From assembly GCA_964426185.1 (NCBI GenBank), contig CAYRPF010000018.1:10442-42441 (forward strand): 32,000 nt of DNA, read 5' to 3'. Made by a program: the position numbers and the translations under genes. Under the pieces are notes generated by a model. The model saw only the letters and a program-made list of their open reading frames with translations, did no database searches and was not told where the DNA came from. The stretch is from an uncultured archaeon. Lineage in GTDB: Archaea > Asgardarchaeota > Lokiarchaeia > Sigyniarchaeales > Promethearchaeaceae. Position 1 is the first letter of the stretch. Every line of letters begins with the position of its first letter. Shown piece after piece: positions 7,647 to 31,961 of this stretch.

Positions 7647-8117
7647 CTATTGCAAATGACGTTCGATGATTTGCCGAAGCTTGCTTTTATTTTGCTCATT
7701 GATTCCCACCATTCCATAGGTAGGAACCCCTAATGCCGCTTCAATTGAACTTGGATCCATCCGATCATCCAAATCTTGCTTGTTCGCAATTGCTATGACT
7801 TTTGCAGCATTTTTAGTCAAATGACGTTCCAACAAGTCCTTTGTAAGCATCACGTTCTTCGTAGTTGAATCCGTCACAACTATTGTCAATTTGGAACCGC
7901 GCAAAAATTCATCCCAAAGAAATTGAAATCTTCGTTGACCCGCTAAATCCCAAACACACATGTTTCCTAATGCCGTCGGGACTTTAGAGATTTCGACCCC
8001 AATGGTCGGTTTTCGTTCGTCGAGGTCGTGTTTTTCTTTCAGGAGTTTGGTGAGGGTCGTTTTACCGACATTAGCTTCGCCGATTAACACAGCTTTATAT
8101 GCATTCATATTTTTCAC
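7647..8117 (-). CDS. Small Ras-superfamily (Arf/Rab-like) GTPase
   Basis: G1 GEANVGKT, G2 PTIG, G3 WDLAGQ, G4 NKQD; 156 aa, stand-alone. Confidence 0.92.
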   Translation of the reverse strand: MKNMNAYKAVLIGEANVGKTTLTKLLKEKHDLDERKPTIGVEISKVPTALGNMCVWDLAGQRRFQFLWDEFLRGSKLTIVVTDSTTKNVMLTKDLLERHLTKNAAKVIAIANKQDLDDRMDPSSIEAALGVPTYGMVGINEQNKSKLRQIIERHLQ

Positions 8118-25376: not shown

Positions 25377-26612
25377 TTAACGTTTTAAAAAAAGTTCTTT
25401 TTTCAATTGTTCTTCATCGATTTCTAGCCCTAAATTTTGTAGAAAAAATCTATCACTTCCTGAAATCGAATTCGAAGGACCCATTATAATTCCACCTTGC
25501 AATTTTTTTTCTTCTATAAGAACTTTTTTACTGATAAATTTCTCTGCATCCGTATTTTCGATAATAATTTTGCCGTCAGAAAGATTTTCAGTTGAAAGGA
25601 GTTTTCCAAAACAGCTTAAGTTTAATCCAGCTACCTTCAAACGAGTACTCCAAAAAGTCCCCTGATATGGGTCTTGTTCAATATTAATTATACTTTTTGC
25701 AGCAATTTTGGCTTGTTCTAAACATGCTGGGATAATTCCCCAAATTGAACCGTTAAATTGGATGCAGTCCCCTGCAGCATAAATGTCTTCTTCGCTGGTT
25801 TGCATAAAATCATTAACAACAATCCCACGTTCAACTTTCAGTCCTGCGTTTTCAGCTAACTTGGTTTTAGGAATTATCCCCATTTGTTGAAGCACCATTT
25901 GACATGAAATTGTGTTACCAGATTCGAACTTTACCCCGGTGACGTGTTCTTCTCCTAAGATTTTCTCGGCTTTCTCCCCACATATAATCTGCAATCCCTT
26001 ATGTTCTAAATATTCCTTCAAAAGCTTTGCAGTACCGGAATCCAATTGTCGGGGTAATAAATAGGGTGCAATTTCGCATATCATTATTTTTAAGCCGAGT
26101 TCGCTTAGATTATAACCCAATTCGATACCGAGCAATCCTCCCCCCAGAATCATTAATTCTTTCACATCTTGAGAGCGGATATATCCTTTGATTTGTTCTG
26201 CATCTACTATACAACGAAGGGTGAAAACTCCTTTTACGTTGGGATTTCCAAAAGGTAGTCTACGGGGTTTACTTCCCGTTGCAATAACCAACTTATCATA
26301 ACTCATTATGCCGGTATCATCGGAATTAGAGAGGTGTTTTTGGAATCGAATTTCCTTCTCGCGAGAGTTTATTTCAATCACTTTCGAATTCAAATGAAGA
26401 AAAATGTTTTTTTTTTCATACCATTCAGGCTTTTTTAATATTAATTTTTCCAGTGAGCGTTTTTCTGCTATAAAATTCGGAAGAAATATTCTGGAGTAAA
26501 AAGGAAATGATTCTTCAGTGAATATATGAATCTGACGATCCTGATCCGATTTACGTATTTCCTCTGCTACTGTTTGACCTGCTACTCCATTTCCAATGAT
26601 AACAACGCGCAT
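25377..26612 (-). CDS. FAD-dependent NAD(P)H oxidoreductase (rubredoxin reductase/NirB-N-like)
   Basis: GNGVAG FAD motif, ATGS, GGGLLGIE NADH motif, IYAAGD. Confidence 0.9.
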   Translation of the reverse strand: MRVVIIGNGVAGQTVAEEIRKSDQDRQIHIFTEESFPFYSRIFLPNFIAEKRSLEKLILKKPEWYEKKNIFLHLNSKVIEINSREKEIRFQKHLSNSDDTGIMSYDKLVIATGSKPRRLPFGNPNVKGVFTLRCIVDAEQIKGYIRSQDVKELMILGGGLLGIELGYNLSELGLKIMICEIAPYLLPRQLDSGTAKLLKEYLEHKGLQIICGEKAEKILGEEHVTGVKFESGNTISCQMVLQQMGIIPKTKLAENAGLKVERGIVVNDFMQTSEEDIYAAGDCIQFNGSIWGIIPACLEQAKIAAKSIINIEQDPYQGTFWSTRLKVAGLNLSCFGKLLSTENLSDGKIIIENTDAEKFISKKVLIEEKKLQGGIIMGPSNSISGSDRFFLQNLGLEIDEEQLKKELFLKR

Positions 26613-26787
26613 GATCTATTCTGTGCTTAATTTATATGGCATTTAATTAAAATATCTTTATTTATTTTTATTATTGAATTTGCTAATCGAATTTCTTTTA
26701 ATCATGTTATAAAATATAAAGATATTACGTTTGAGGTGTTTAACCTAATACCCAAAATAATTTAAAAATCACTTACATAATTCAAAT

Positions 26788-27105
26788 ATGAGTTCAGAAA
26801 TACCATTCGTAGAAGAAAATGGAAAGGTAGATCATCAAGATATCACGGTATATGCTCTATCAACATGCGGTTTCTGCAGACGAGGGTTGCAATTCTTAAG
26901 GGATCGTCAAGTAAAATTCCGTTATGTATATGTGGATAAAATTCCATATGAAGTAAAGAATGACTTAAAGGTTAAACTCCAAGCGAAGTTTCAGAGAAGA
27001 GTTGCCTTTCCCTTTGTAGTGATTAACGACGAACGAGCACTGGTAGGCTTCGTCCAAAGAGAATGGGAAGAAATAATAAAGTTTAACATAAAGTGGGAAA
27101 AATGA
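26788..27105 (+). CDS. Glutaredoxin-family protein
   Basis: YALSTCGFC active site, AFP cis-Pro motif, LVGF. Confidence 0.88.
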   Translation: MSSEIPFVEENGKVDHQDITVYALSTCGFCRRGLQFLRDRQVKFRYVYVDKIPYEVKNDLKVKLQAKFQRRVAFPFVVINDERALVGFVQREWEEIIKFNIKWEK

Positions 27106-27422
27106 AAACCAAAGAACAAACTCGCAAATTTATGGAAATGGTGGCTAAAAAAAATGGCTGGCATTTGAATCGTGATGAAGAATTTTTAGATATGTTAGCC
27201 GATGGTTTAACCACTAATTACAACAGGTACGGCTATTACTCTTGTCCTTGTCGCGATGCGGATGGGGATAAGGAATTGGATAAAGATATAATTTGTCCGT
27301 GCGATTATTGCGTCCCCGATCAGAAAGAATACGGACATTGCTACTGTGGTCTTTTTTTAACCCCTGAATTTTATCTGAGTGGAAAGGAACCGGAAGCTAT
27401 ACCCGAACATCGGCCATTATAA
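27102..27422 (+). CDS. Ferredoxin-thioredoxin reductase catalytic-subunit family protein
   Basis: CPCR, ICPC and HCYCGLF motifs; ATGA overlap with the glutaredoxin stop. Confidence 0.92.
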   Translation: MKTKEQTRKFMEMVAKKNGWHLNRDEEFLDMLADGLTTNYNRYGYYSCPCRDADGDKELDKDIICPCDYCVPDQKEYGHCYCGLFLTPEFYLSGKEPEAIPEHRPL

Positions 27423-27477
27423 TCAATTTACTTTAATTGAACTAATTCTATCAATTTAACTAAAAAAAGTGAAAAAA

Positions 27478-28719
27478 ATGAAAGCAGTAGAAATTACAGA
27501 TGGAATATACTGGATCGGTGCCAGTATCTCCTCCAATGATTTATTTGAAGGAATCTGGCCCATCCCGAAAGGTGTTACAATTAATTCCTACCTTATTAAA
27601 GGTGAAAAAGTTGCAATTGTTGATCTAGTCAGAGATTGGGCAGGAGCTTCGACTTATCTGCTTGATGAGCTTCGATCTTTGAATATATCTCCTCAAGATG
27701 TGGATTATATTATTTTAAATCATCTTGAGCCTGATCACACCGGAGATTTAAGAGCCTTTTATGAGTTATGTGAAAATACCAAGATTATTACTTCTAAAAA
27801 GGGCGTTCCACTGGTGAAAGCGTTTTACGGCTTTGAGGAAAAGGTAGAAGGTGTAGGGACTGGAGATGAACTGGATTTGGGAAATGGGAAGAAATTAAAA
27901 TTTTTCGATATTCCCAACGTCCACTGGCCAGAGACCATGGCTACCTATGAAGAATCTACCGGAACTCTGCTTCCTTGTGATGCATTCGGATCTTTCGGAG
28001 CATTTAAAGGTTGTATTTTCGATGATCAAGTATCTGAAGAAGATCACCTGTTTTACGAACGGGAATCGCTTCGATACTACGCAAATATCGTGGGGCCTTA
28101 TTCCAATTTTGTAACGAAAGCCATTGAAGCCGTTGGAACACTTCTCATTAAAATTATCGCACCTTCACATGGACTAATTTGGCGGAAAAATCCCGGGCGA
28201 ATTGTAGAGCGCTATAAACATTACGCTTCCTATATGACCGATTATGCTGAGCCTAAAATTACTGTAATTTGGGGCAGTATGTACGGAAACACCGAACTAA
28301 TGCTAAGATCGGTTCTCCAAGGTATTGCATCTGAGAGTGTTCTGACAGAAGTTTTTCGGGTTCCAGAAGATCATATATCCTACATTTTAGCATCTGTTTG
28401 GGAATCCGCAGGATTAGTGTTTGGAATGCCCACGTATGAGTATAAAATGTATCCACCTATGCGCGATGCCTTGACCCATATCGTTCAAAAGAAGGCAAAA
28501 TATAAAAAAGTGTTCCGCTTCGGTTCCTATGGATGGTCTGGGGGTGCTCAAAAGGAGTTCGATACACTCACTGAAAAAATGAAATGGGATATGATTGATC
28601 CAATGGAATTCCAAGGTTCTCCCACGGATGAGGATTTGAAGTTAGCATTTCAACGTGGGGCTGATTTAGCTTGTGAAGTTAAAAAAATCGCCCGAAAAAA
28701 TTCGGAGTTTCATTCTTAA
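27478..28719 (+). CDS. fprA: FprA family flavodiiron protein
   Basis: NHLEPDH, VHWPET and CDAFG di-iron ligands; flavodoxin SMYGNT and FGSYGWSG. Confidence 0.93.
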   Translation: MKAVEITDGIYWIGASISSNDLFEGIWPIPKGVTINSYLIKGEKVAIVDLVRDWAGASTYLLDELRSLNISPQDVDYIILNHLEPDHTGDLRAFYELCENTKIITSKKGVPLVKAFYGFEEKVEGVGTGDELDLGNGKKLKFFDIPNVHWPETMATYEESTGTLLPCDAFGSFGAFKGCIFDDQVSEEDHLFYERESLRYYANIVGPYSNFVTKAIEAVGTLLIKIIAPSHGLIWRKNPGRIVERYKHYASYMTDYAEPKITVIWGSMYGNTELMLRSVLQGIASESVLTEVFRVPEDHISYILASVWESAGLVFGMPTYEYKMYPPMRDALTHIVQKKAKYKKVFRFGSYGWSGGAQKEFDTLTEKMKWDMIDPMEFQGSPTDEDLKLAFQRGADLACEVKKIARKNSEFHS

Positions 28720-28763: not shown

Positions 28764-30269
28764 TTAAAATAACTTTTTTCTGAACACAATCAAAATGTAA
28801 AGGGAGTTGGCTAATTCTAAGCAAGATAGTAAAATTAATAGCAGTAACATATCAGGTTGGAATTGACTTAATAGGGTATAAACGCTACTCTCCAATCCAA
28901 TTAAAAGGCTGAACAAGAATGGAATTAAAAGCATCAAAATCGCGATAATTACTAAATGCACTATGATATCCACCCAAATTACTTGGCGTTTTTGGCTGCT
29001 AATCAGTTTTTCTTCCATCTGTTTCTCAATCTGCTGCTTGATTCCGAAAAATTTCCAGATTTTTCTCCCAATCACAAAAATAACTACCACCATAATCAAA
29101 ATATACAGTACGACATGAGACAGAAAAGGATAATATGGTGGCTGGTCATTTAAAATGTTATAAATACTATCAGCCAAATTGCGGTAATAGACTTGATTTC
29201 CGAAAAAGCTATTTACATTGGTTAAAACCACAATTCCACCCATATCCTCAGGTGTTAGCAAAATTTCAATATGATAATCTTGGAAATCTCCCGATTGTGC
29301 CAAAAACTCAACATCATTAAACGTAAAATTGTACCAACCAACTGCCCATGATGAATTTAAAGAGGAAGAAGACGGGTTGGAAAGTGAATGAAGCAATTGG
29401 AATGAATCAGGCTGCAATACATTTTTTGTGACGTTGCTGTTGGAATAATCCAAGTGGGCTAACATTAGTTTTAACAAATCCTCGATATTTGTAAGCACAC
29501 CGTTTGCCGGTGCAATTTCTGTATCGTGAGAAATTCGTGAGGGAATCATCATTCCATACCAAATTCGATAACCATGAGCAAAATTAGGGTTATTGCGAGC
29601 ATCTTTAATGTCAAAGTAGGTTTGATTCATTCCTAGAGGATGCAAAATACGCGTTGTAATAAAATCTTGAAAGGTTTGATTGGTTATTTGTTCGATAATT
29701 CCTCCTAAAATCCAATAGTTCGCATTGGAAAATTCAAATACGGTTCCAGGTGCAGCAATAGGTTTTTCGTCTTTTAAACCCAAGATCAAATCTGAAATCT
29801 TATCTTTTTTCTCAGAATTGTCTCCTGAATCAATGGATAACCCCGATTGATGTCGTAAACAATTTTCCACTGTAATACGAGCGGCATACTCCGAGTTGGA
29901 AAGACCAAATGTATGTAAATAGTCTATCACATGATTTGAGATATTCAATAGACCATCTTCTTGCAGGGCTAATATCCCCATGGAAGTAAGTATTTGTGAA
30001 ATTTCTCCGACCATAAACAGACTTTGGTTGGTTATAGGTGTATTATCATTATCAGCTTTTCCATTTCCATCAGCGTAAATTATTTTTCCTTCTTGAATTA
30101 CACCTACAGCCATGCCTGGGATAATTGATTTGGATATTTGCTCGTTGATGTAATTATCAATAAGTTCGCTGGTGGTGGAAGCGCTACCATTTGAAACAAG
30201 GATTAAATTACTCAATGGGGCTAAAAACAGTAATATTAAAACATAAGTGATAACTCGATAGATCTTCAT
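28764..30269 (-). CDS. Membrane-anchored beta-lactamase/serine hydrolase-fold protein, catalytic motifs substituted
   Basis: IPGMAVGVI, ITVENCLRHQSG, PG..FEFSNANY and PLGMNQT scaffold motifs; signal peptide and 3 C-terminal TMs; SxxK is ExxQ. Confidence 0.88.
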   Translation of the reverse strand: MKIYRVITYVLILLFLAPLSNLILVSNGSASTTSELIDNYINEQISKSIIPGMAVGVIQEGKIIYADGNGKADNDNTPITNQSLFMVGEISQILTSMGILALQEDGLLNISNHVIDYLHTFGLSNSEYAARITVENCLRHQSGLSIDSGDNSEKKDKISDLILGLKDEKPIAAPGTVFEFSNANYWILGGIIEQITNQTFQDFITTRILHPLGMNQTYFDIKDARNNPNFAHGYRIWYGMMIPSRISHDTEIAPANGVLTNIEDLLKLMLAHLDYSNSNVTKNVLQPDSFQLLHSLSNPSSSSLNSSWAVGWYNFTFNDVEFLAQSGDFQDYHIEILLTPEDMGGIVVLTNVNSFFGNQVYYRNLADSIYNILNDQPPYYPFLSHVVLYILIMVVVIFVIGRKIWKFFGIKQQIEKQMEEKLISSQKRQVIWVDIIVHLVIIAILMLLIPFLFSLLIGLESSVYTLLSQFQPDMLLLLILLSCLELANSLYILIVFRKKLF

Positions 30270-30305
30270 TTTCGTTTTTTCCTAGTTACGAATTTTACAT
30301 TGAAA

Positions 30306-30328
30306 TATATTCATTCTGAATGATTATA
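30306..30328. promoter_or_regulatory. Palindromic operator candidate in divergent promoter region
   Basis: TATATTCATTC-T-GAATGATTATA; 11-bp arms with one mismatch, perfect 6-1-6 core. Confidence 0.5.
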
Positions 30329-30385
30329 GAATAAAAAACTTACTTTAATTTACGAAGTGAACCTATAATAATAATTGGTGAAAAT

Positions 30386-30745
30386 ATGCAATTTCAATGG
30401 GAAATCACAGCAGATGAGAAAATTACGGTAATTATAGAACTGATTTTTTCACTTGTAGCACTATTTACCTTGATAGAATTTGCATTTATTAAGAAAAAGT
30501 ATCCTAAATTAACCAAAAAAGGATATGGACTGATATTTTCAGGTGTTATAATTTTTGCAATCCATATATTGTTTGATCTGCTTGATACTCTTGCTATGAA
30601 AAAAGTGAACGGAGAAAATTCAATTCTTTACCTAATTTTTGATTATTTAGATGCAATTTTTTCGTTTATTGGTTTATTTGCTATTGGGTTCGGAATTCTT
30701 CAAGTAGCTAAATATGGCATGGATGTTTGGGAGGGTGATGAATAA
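30386..30745 (+). CDS. Small 3-TM membrane protein A
   Basis: Three hydrophobic segments, basic loop KKKYPKLTKKGY, FDLLD; GGTGA SD upstream. Confidence 0.8.
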   Translation: MQFQWEITADEKITVIIELIFSLVALFTLIEFAFIKKKYPKLTKKGYGLIFSGVIIFAIHILFDLLDTLAMKKVNGENSILYLIFDYLDAIFSFIGLFAIGFGILQVAKYGMDVWEGDE

Positions 30746-31095
30746 TGATTTTCCTATCGATTATTACTCCAGCTCCAAGCATAGATGAGTTGGATTTAAT
30801 CTTGGAATTTTTAAGTTTACTGGGATTTCTGTTTATCTTTATCATGGTAATCTATGCCAATAAGAAAAACCCGGTATTCCGATCCAAAGGATATCCAGTT
30901 TTGCTGATCGGTATTGGATTAGGTACTATTGCAGCAGGAATGGATGTATTTGATGAATTTTTCTGGATTCATCAGGGATATGAAATCTTTAAAACGACTA
31001 TGAACGTTCTCTTCATTCTTAGTCTAACAATTTTCAGCTTTGCCATCTTCTTGGTGTTTCGCTTTACCAAATTTATCATGGGAGAAGATAACTAA
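30745..31095 (+). CDS. Small 3-TM membrane protein B (paralog of A)
   Basis: Three hydrophobic segments, loop KKNPVFRSKGY, MDVFD; TAATG overlap with A. Confidence 0.8.
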   Translation: MIFLSIITPAPSIDELDLILEFLSLLGFLFIFIMVIYANKKNPVFRSKGYPVLLIGIGLGTIAAGMDVFDEFFWIHQGYEIFKTTMNVLFILSLTIFSFAIFLVFRFTKFIMGEDN

Positions 31096-31109
31096 ATCCG
31101 TGAAAAATC

Positions 31110-31961
31110 ATGCTACTTGAAGTCTTCATTATTCAAAAGGGTACTTCTTTCTTGCTAGTTCGTTACCCTTTCACTAAAAAGGAACTCCAGATGGATGGAA
31201 CTCTCTTTTCTGGCATGATTTCAGCTATATCACTTTTTACCAACGAGTTGAAGATCGGAGAAATCCAATTTTTCGAAACTAAAGATCATCAAATAATCAT
31301 TCACGCACTGGAAAACATAATCGCGGTCGGTGTGGTGGAAAATAAAAAAGAAGATGATTTTGTTATAAAAACTTTGAAAAATATTGCGCAGCAATTTATA
31401 GATAAATATTCTGAAAAATTAAATAATTGGAATGGCGATATCGGTATTTTTGTGCCGTTTTCAAATGATATTGCCGAAATCTTCTATTCGCGTTTTGCAG
31501 AGTTTTATATCGCACGTGATTTCCCCCAAAATATAATCAAAGTTATTCGAAATATTCAAAATAAATTCGAACCGCATATCATCAGATTTATTGGTTTAAA
31601 AATTGGTCATGAAAGAGCCTCTAATGTTCCTGAAAAGCAACTACAAAAATTAAGAAATAATGAAAATGAATTTGGAAAACCGCTTTTAAAAATTGTAGAA
31701 AAGGAAATTAATCACTTTTCTATTAGCCAAACCCAATATATAGATAAAGATAATCAAAATTTTTTGGAAGTTTTCTTAAAAATTTGCCCCGAATGTCGTG
31801 GTATTCATGATTCTGAATTTTCATGTCATTTTATTACCGGGTTTTTGGAAGGATTTCTCGATCGAATAAATCCAGTAAGAAAATGGATTGTCTCAGAAAA
31901 AGAATGTCATGCTCGAGGCGATCCAAACTGTGTTTTTAAAGCAATTCCTCATCTTAAATGA
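31110..31961 (+). CDS. Longin-like domain fused to V4R (4-vinyl reductase) domain
   Basis: N-terminal EVFII..DGTLFSGMISAISLFTNEL..QQFIDKY..WNGD..F; C-terminal CPEC..CHFITGFLEG..EKECHARGDPNCVF. Confidence 0.8.
   Translation: MLLEVFIIQKGTSFLLVRYPFTKKELQMDGTLFSGMISAISLFTNELKIGEIQFFETKDHQIIIHALENIIAVGVVENKKEDDFVIKTLKNIAQQFIDKYSEKLNNWNGDIGIFVPFSNDIAEIFYSRFAEFYIARDFPQNIIKVIRNIQNKFEPHIIRFIGLKIGHERASNVPEKQLQKLRNNENEFGKPLLKIVEKEINHFSISQTQYIDKDNQNFLEVFLKICPECRGIHDSEFSCHFITGFLEGFLDRINPVRKWIVSEKECHARGDPNCVFKAIPHLK

Follow-up and report, generated by a model that had tools for sequence, protein, structure and literature searches.

This report concerns four neighbouring genes at positions 28764 to 31961 of a 32,000-nucleotide (nt) stretch of DNA, hereafter the window, from the genome of an uncultured Lokiarchaeia archaeon (assembly GCA_964426185.1, contig CAYRPF010000018.1). 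Three of these genes encode two paralogous small proteins with three predicted transmembrane (TM) helices each, TM3a and TM3b, and a soluble protein, LV4R, in which a longin domain is fused to a V4R domain. Judged from sequence comparisons, TM3a, TM3b and LV4R form a single unit that is conserved Asgard-wide. The fourth gene encodes PBL, a pseudo-beta-lactamase that is best explained as a neighbour held there by genus-level synteny rather than as a component of the triad. The explanation favoured here, with a probability of roughly 0.6, is that the locus contains two independent units, namely a membrane-docked longin-V4R operon and a separate, dead ClbP-type protein. The genes and the spacer between them are arranged as follows.

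28764-30269, minus strand: PBL, 501 amino acids (aa), a ClbP-architecture protein of the S12/beta-lactamase fold whose catalytic motifs are lost

30270-30385, no strand: divergent spacer of 116 nt between PBL and TM3a

30386-30745, plus strand: TM3a, 119 aa, the first of two paralogous 3-TM proteins

30745-31095, plus strand: TM3b, 116 aa, the second paralogous 3-TM protein

31110-31961, plus strand: LV4R, 283 aa, a soluble longin-V4R protein

The case for a three-gene unit comes primarily from its distribution. In a profile search, the 3-TM pair was present in 49 of 400 genomes of the phylum, representing 24 of 85 genera, nearly always as exactly two adjacent matches. For neighbourhood comparison, 46 loci were taken with flanks of about 5 kb. 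A homologue of LV4R matching both of its domains directly adjoins the pair in 43 of these loci, while the other three end at contig ends; the triad is thus intact in all 43 testable loci. Co-occurrence also holds at the level of whole genomes: of the 41 nearest, eight have the pair, and these eight and no others have full-length LV4R orthologues. The genes usually run TM3a-TM3b-LV4R, with LV4R coming first in some lineages and lying convergent to the pair in one genus. Clustering of all flanking open reading frames (ORFs) revealed no other gene family recurring beside the triad across lineages, and no recurring TRAPP-like, roadblock or GTPase family in particular.

The triad occurs in Loki-type genomes, in Candidatus Thorarchaeota, in Candidatus Heimdallarchaeum endolithica and aukensis, and in other Heimdall-type metagenome-assembled genomes (MAGs). 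Some loci of family f31, one genome of which is titled Thorarchaeota, display the order LV4R-TM3a-TM3b-LV4R (L057:2825-6586, L065:3979-6588 and L070:521-3127). The presence of LV4R on both sides suggests that a single membrane pair may have a choice of two soluble partners. A triad was also found in a record labelled Candidatus Bathyarchaeia archaeon (L094, DATKZI010000013.1). The LV4R encoded there is 68% identical to that of a Heimdall-type MAG, and the taxonomy used in this analysis places the record in the same Asgard genus (g52) as that MAG; its NCBI label is probably wrong. A search for related loci with the LV4R of the window as query returned no matches, and the literature searched for longin together with V4R yielded no published description of the triad.

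Within the window, all four ORFs are present at the positions given in a preliminary description of this locus, which had been made from the sequence alone. Its account of the layout, comprising four genes around a 116-nt divergent spacer, a 1-nt overlap and a 14-nt gap, is correct, and so are its assignments of a surface-exposed AmpC-fold protein without catalytic residues, two paralogous 3-TM proteins and a soluble longin-V4R fusion. The 1-nt overlap joins TM3a and TM3b, with the last A of the TAA stop codon serving as the first A of the ATG start codon (TAATG). A Shine-Dalgarno-like run, GGAGGGTGA, lies upstream of this junction, and TM3b is predicted to be translationally coupled to TM3a via TAATG. 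The 14-nt gap separates TM3b from LV4R.

TM3a and TM3b have no match above cut-off in Pfam or NCBIfam, and an ESM Atlas look-up with TM3a returned unnamed clusters only. The two proteins are paralogues: they match each other in BLASTP (E 4e-4), and E18, K45, G46, D64 and Y82 are invariant in an alignment of 14 sequences. Hydropathy identifies three TM segments in each protein, with a basic loop after TM1. Across the 42-43 aligned orthologues of the pair, conserved positions comprise carboxylates near the outer helix ends, the cytoplasmic loop and the C-terminal tails. In TM3a (42 orthologues), E18, D64, D67 and T68 are invariant, and an FDxLDT motif marks the outer end of TM2; conservation extends to the YPKLTxKG loop in the cytoplasm and to W115 at the C-terminus. 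In TM3b, the outer TM2 end bears the motif MDxFDEFxW, and the C-terminal tail, LFGE, is conserved. According to the positive-inside rule, the N-terminus likely lies outside and the C-terminal tail inside.

The TM3 family is tiny. A search with TM3a among 1.84 billion representative proteins recovered 42 clusters (50% identity) at E 0.001, and one of the more distant matches also has an LV4R beside it. A further distant relative of the pair (E 4e-5) resides on a JGI metagenome contig (L089:236-2120). There, the pair is followed by a 183-aa protein belonging to no family and by an Arf/Ras GTPase, both convergent to the pair. These genes take the place of a longin-V4R gene after the pair, and the 183-aa protein gave no match to the LV4R profile.

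LV4R has no TM segment by hydropathy and matches PF02830 over residues 221-278 with 36.1 bits (cut-off 31); its orthologues score 33-49 bits. Its structural model, built from an alignment of 38 sequences (pLDDT 91, pTM 0.84), consists of a longin domain at approximately residues 1-105 and a V4R/Bet3-fold domain at approximately residues 111-283. The secondary structure elements assigned by DSSP to the first domain (E2-9, E15-20, H30-47, E54-56, E61-67, E70-76 and H79-105) follow the beta-beta-alpha-beta-beta-beta-alpha order of the longin topology. In Foldseek searches, the N-terminal half matches Mon1/Ccz1 (9l0d, 7qla), AP-3 sigma (9c58_M) and Fuzzy-Inturned, and the C-terminal half matches TRAPPC3/Bet3, Thor-TRAPPC3 (7yh3), the sensor domains of MopR, PoxR and DmpR, and MJ1460. 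The V4R/Bet3-fold matches 6aq3, 7yh3, 5kbg, 5fru and 2oso were obtained at E 2e-6 to 5e-4. C226, C229, C266 and C274 are invariant in the 38 sequences, and C239 is kept in about 90%. PoxR and Thor-TRAPPC3 have a four-cysteine zinc-binding site (PMC10933270), which the four invariant cysteines of LV4R resemble; they are a predicted metal site. Homologues of LV4R appear in databases under the names 'V4R domain-containing', '4-vinyl reductase' or 'hypothetical'.

PBL, on the other side of the spacer, matches the profile PF00144 with E 5.7e-38, and its closest solved relatives by sequence are Flp, Pab87 and ClbP (ClbP sequence E 7.5e-23). Its catalytic motifs were read by alignment to Flp (4gdn) and to active paralogues in which all three motifs are kept. 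In the PBL of the genome of the window (G000, a 3.26-Mb assembly that is 92% complete), each motif is replaced.

S-x-x-K in active relatives: E-I-S-Q in PBL

Y-x-N in active relatives: F-S-N in PBL

H/K-x-G in active relatives: Q-S-G in PBL

The orthologues of two congeneric genomes read E-I-S-Q, F-S-N and Q-S-G (G001) and E-L-S-Q, F-S-N and I-S-G (G002). Because the catalytic Ser, Lys and Tyr and the His/Lys of the third motif are all replaced, PBL cannot be a peptidase. A TM-anchored homologue in G010, from a sister genus (L021:1465-2964; 28% identical), lacks the nucleophilic Ser alone (A-M-G-K), with Lys, Tyr and His still in place, and looks like an intermediate stage of inactivation within the same protein family.

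The architecture of PBL is that of a membrane-bound surface protein. Hydropathy defines an N-terminal signal anchor (residues ~1-30), an ectodomain of 347 residues (~31-377) that carries N-glycosylation sequons, and a C-terminal TM region (~378-497) with segments at 378-410, 427-467 and 472-497. The corresponding helices in the AlphaFold model (pLDDT 79.6) span residues 385-408, 424-457 and 472-500. In Foldseek searches, the model matches Pab87 (E 2e-23) and also AmpC, R61 and ClbP. The alignments to full-length ClbP (7mdc, 7mde and 7ul6) cover 478-494 columns, with TM-scores of 0.65-0.67 by query, and are longer than any domain-only match. In ClbP, a peptidase of the inner membrane, the catalytic domain is periplasmic and the TM domain has three helices (PMC9889268). 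PBL shares with this colibactin-activating enzyme the extracytoplasmic S12 domain followed by three TM helices, but it is an archaeal protein that has lost the catalytic motifs, and no natural-product gene cluster lies close to its gene. PBL is therefore a catalytically dead surface protein of ClbP architecture, for which binding is possible and cleavage is not. The archaea considered here lack peptidoglycan, and a dead ClbP-type protein in such organisms is a small curiosity in itself.

The association of PBL with the triad was found in only three genomes, all of genus g1, to which G000 belongs. This adjacency is part of a block of 11 consecutive genes that is collinear between G000 and G001, and for this reason it is given no particular weight. 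In the closed genome G010, about 2 Mb separate the PBL-type homologue from the triad. The closed genome G011 has the triad, and a full-length PBL homologue was not found in it. Two closed Heimdallarchaeum genomes encode only a 385-aa, domain-only PBL paralogue, located about 1.5-1.7 Mb from the triad, and PBL as query found no match in two triad-bearing Thor genomes of 97-98% completeness. Among the loci of other genera in the 46-locus set, none of about 40 has a PBL-type, TM-anchored neighbour. The proposed link between a pseudo-beta-lactamase receptor and the triad is thus one of genus-level synteny and should not be carried forward.

Other observations concern the same neighbourhood. In G002, a 164-aa ORF resembling a GNAT acetyltransferase (L020:830-1324; identified by eye, not scanned) lies between PBL and TM3a and splits the divergent spacer. 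In genome G185, a PF00144 gene convergent to LV4R (L076:2684-4057) was considered as a counterpart of PBL and rejected, being a soluble Pab87-type paralogue with intact motifs. This gene, the only beta-lactamase-family neighbour found at a locus of another genus, is apparently active, has an octamerisation domain and is unrelated to PBL; it represents a second case of PF00144 beside the triad, by chance. A shared origin of the C-terminal TM region of PBL and TM3a/TM3b was likewise rejected (hhalign probability 0.25%).

The spacer between PBL and TM3a contains several short elements. A Shine-Dalgarno-like GGTGA motif lies 5 nt ahead of the TM3a ATG. A TATA-like TTTACGAA box is located 5' of TM3a, and the same TTTACGAA is found 5' of TM3a in G002; it may be a promoter element of TM3a. 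The preliminary description had also reported a palindrome.

30306-30328, within the spacer: imperfect palindrome with 11-nt arms, one mismatch and a 1-nt spacer

The palindrome is present, but its arm length is equalled in 116 of 2000 shuffles of the spacer (5.8%) and in 11 of 550 116-nt windows of the 32-kb window (2%), and it was not found in the matching spacers of G001 and G002. Its significance is marginal, and it is not conserved.

These features can be combined into a model of the triad. Translational coupling would ensure that TM3a and TM3b are made in equal amounts, and the two proteins would most likely pair into a six-helix membrane anchor. In the N-out topology, the conserved carboxylate cluster would be placed at the outer face, and the basic loop and C-terminal tails would be placed in the cytoplasm, where they could dock the soluble LV4R. 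The V4R/Bet3-fold half of LV4R, held by its Cys4 (zinc-type) site, may bind a small, probably hydrophobic, ligand, and the longin half may provide a platform for dimerisation or partner binding. The whole triad would then act as a membrane-docked sensor or adaptor complex, with PBL as a separate entity.

Two further sets of results bear on this explanation. One, which counts both for and against it, is the prediction of the physical complex, in which TM3a and TM3b were folded with LV4R as partner using three alignments. The interface score (ipSAE) was 0.45 (runs 0.41, 0.45 and 0.47), compared with 0.04 for the best control, and the verdict was weak support; the runs share at least 92% of contacts, with a partner pLDDT of at least 79. 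When this procedure was calibrated, 58 of 80 solved complexes reached the mark, as did 2 of 110 mismatched pairs. At scores of 0.60 or under, only seven of those 80 complexes passed, together with both mismatches. The complex passed only weakly, and by this calibration a weak pass that is not backed by a strong prior is wrong more often than it is right. Strict gene linkage provides a strong prior here, and the score is read as mildly favourable, no more. The other, which weighs against it, is a faint signal of co-occurrence in family f1: full-length PBL-type genes occur in genera g1, g5 and g6, the same ones that carry the triad, and both are missing from g2, g3, g4 and g7. Common descent may account for this signal.

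Co-occurrence within f1 is among the points that speak for a pathway containing all four proteins, as envisaged in the preliminary description. In that scheme, the PBL ectodomain detects a ligand outside the cell, for instance fragments of bacterial cell wall, and the signal passes through the 3-TM pair to LV4R and on to a small GTPase. The divergent genes share a 116-nt spacer, their adjacency is kept in each of the three g1 genomes, PF00144 genes number only two in G000, and an ectodomain that is dead yet intact in fold fits a binding role. However, the adjacency falls within the 11-gene collinear block, with the GNAT-like gene intervening in G002, and the palindrome is not conserved. The gene-neighbourhood comparison across Asgard genomes, which the preliminary description had named as a check, found PBL unlinked or absent beside the triad outside g1, as in G010, G011, the Thor genomes and the loci of other genera. 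The idea of a module survives for the three plus-strand genes, which form one unit in 43/43 loci, but not for PBL. That description had itself cautioned that the adjacency could be coincidental, and for PBL this is the better reading. A four-component pathway is consequently very improbable.

The final step of that pathway, regulation of a GTPase, can also be considered for the triad alone. Six of the 43 loci have a Ras-family gene no more than about 5 kb from the triad, and its position differs between lineages. From the 44 Ras-family matches in the 3.26 Mb of G000, about 14% of loci would be expected to have such a neighbour by chance, as observed. A Ras gene beside LV4R was therefore rejected as evidence of a GTPase link, and genomic linkage does not support the GTPase-regulator step of the preliminary description. 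The GTPase at 7647-8117 of the window, which lies about 21 kb away, is one of these 44 matches. The triad might still be a membrane-anchored regulator of small GTPases, an archaeal counterpart of longin/TRAPP-type exchange factors, in which TM3a and TM3b set the membrane site and LV4R acts on a Ras-superfamily GTPase encoded elsewhere. The likeness of the longin half to Mon1/Ccz1 and AP sigma and of the V4R half to TRAPPC3/Bet3 fits this role, as do the abundance of Ras-family matches in G000 and the Arf/Ras gene beside the distant relative of the pair in L089. Against it, GTPase proximity is about that of chance, with inconsistent positions, and no other TRAPP or roadblock subunit is linked. 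Moreover, crystallographers judged Asgard V4R/TRAPPC3 proteins to be most likely ligand binders (PMC10933270). Such a regulator is unlikely.

A comparably low probability is given to the proposal that TM3a and TM3b constitute a small hetero-oligomeric cation channel or transporter, for which LV4R would be the ligand-gated cytoplasmic regulator. The transport pathway would be lined by carboxylates E18, D64 and D67 of TM3a and by the D/E cluster of TM3b. Invariance of acidic residues near the TM helix ends in 42-43 orthologues, strict co-occurrence of the pair with LV4R, and the role of V4R domains as ligand sensors in MopR, PoxR and DmpR are all consistent with this proposal. However, the pair has no similarity to a known channel or transporter family, and a scaffold of six short helices is small for transport. 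Judged from hydropathy, the carboxylates also seem to gather on a single face of the membrane instead of lining a path. Each of these alternatives, whether channel, GTPase regulator or four-component pathway, is less supported than two independent units. A broader conjecture, rather doubtful at present and a little less probable than the channel, is that the triad represents an Asgard-wide integral-membrane receptor for a longin/Bet3 platform, a forerunner of the eukaryotic longin/TRAPP-type machinery of membrane identity. The 3-TM pair would mark the site, the V4R pocket would recognise a lipid or a metabolite, and the dead ClbP-like protein would perhaps have been recruited as an extracellular input in this genus.

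Eukaryotic regulators of membrane trafficking are built in part from longin and Bet3/V4R folds. The triad resembles the eukaryotic TRAPP core and the tri-longin guanine nucleotide exchange factors (Bet3/TRAPPC3; Mon1-Ccz1) in bringing longin and Bet3 folds together in one membrane-acting assembly. It differs from them in having no linked TRAPP subunits, in a GTPase linkage at the level of chance, and in a membrane attachment that would be provided by integral 3-TM proteins instead of lipidation or peripheral binding. The V4R sensors MopR, PoxR and DmpR, together with MJ1460 and Thor-TRAPPC3 (7yh3), share with LV4R the fold (Foldseek E 1e-5 to 1e-4), and the four cysteines of LV4R recall the zinc site of PoxR and Thor-TRAPPC3. 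MopR, PoxR and DmpR have AAA+/helix-turn-helix output domains, whereas LV4R lacks these and has instead a longin fusion and coupled membrane proteins.

The closest published precedent is an AlphaFold2 model of a single longin-TRAPPC3 fusion from Heimdallarchaeota (Tran et al., 2024, Commun Biol; PMC10933270). This Asgard protein likewise has an N-terminal longin and a C-terminal TRAPPC3/V4R fold. It was reported alone, and the paper names no membrane partners for it; 'transmembrane' has 0 occurrences in the text. LV4R, in contrast, is a family distributed across Loki-, Thor- and Heimdall-type genomes and always located beside two 3-TM genes. The published Heimdall fusion (MBD3190748.1) is not among the accessions listed for the LV4R family, though it may still belong to it. 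Asgard longin/TRAPPC3-type proteins are diffuse when expressed in HeLa cells (PMC10933270). A strictly conserved operon, found in Loki-, Thor- and Heimdall-type genomes and containing two dedicated membrane proteins, offers a concrete hypothesis for how an Asgard longin-V4R protein meets the membrane. The phyletic co-occurrence of the triad genes, the test of the PBL link and the base rate for neighbouring GTPase genes are new here.

The stretch is contained in 19 sequencing runs, all of them DNA metagenomes from vents and sediments, with no RNA run among them. Upstream of PBL, at positions 25377-28719 of the window, lies a redox-looking run of genes (recognised by eye; families not scanned). 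It includes a pyridine-nucleotide-disulfide-oxidoreductase-like gene, a small glutaredoxin-like gene with a CGFC motif, and genes for a Cys-rich 109-aa protein and a flavodiiron-like 416-aa protein. This run is collinear with that of G001, at 57-88% identity.

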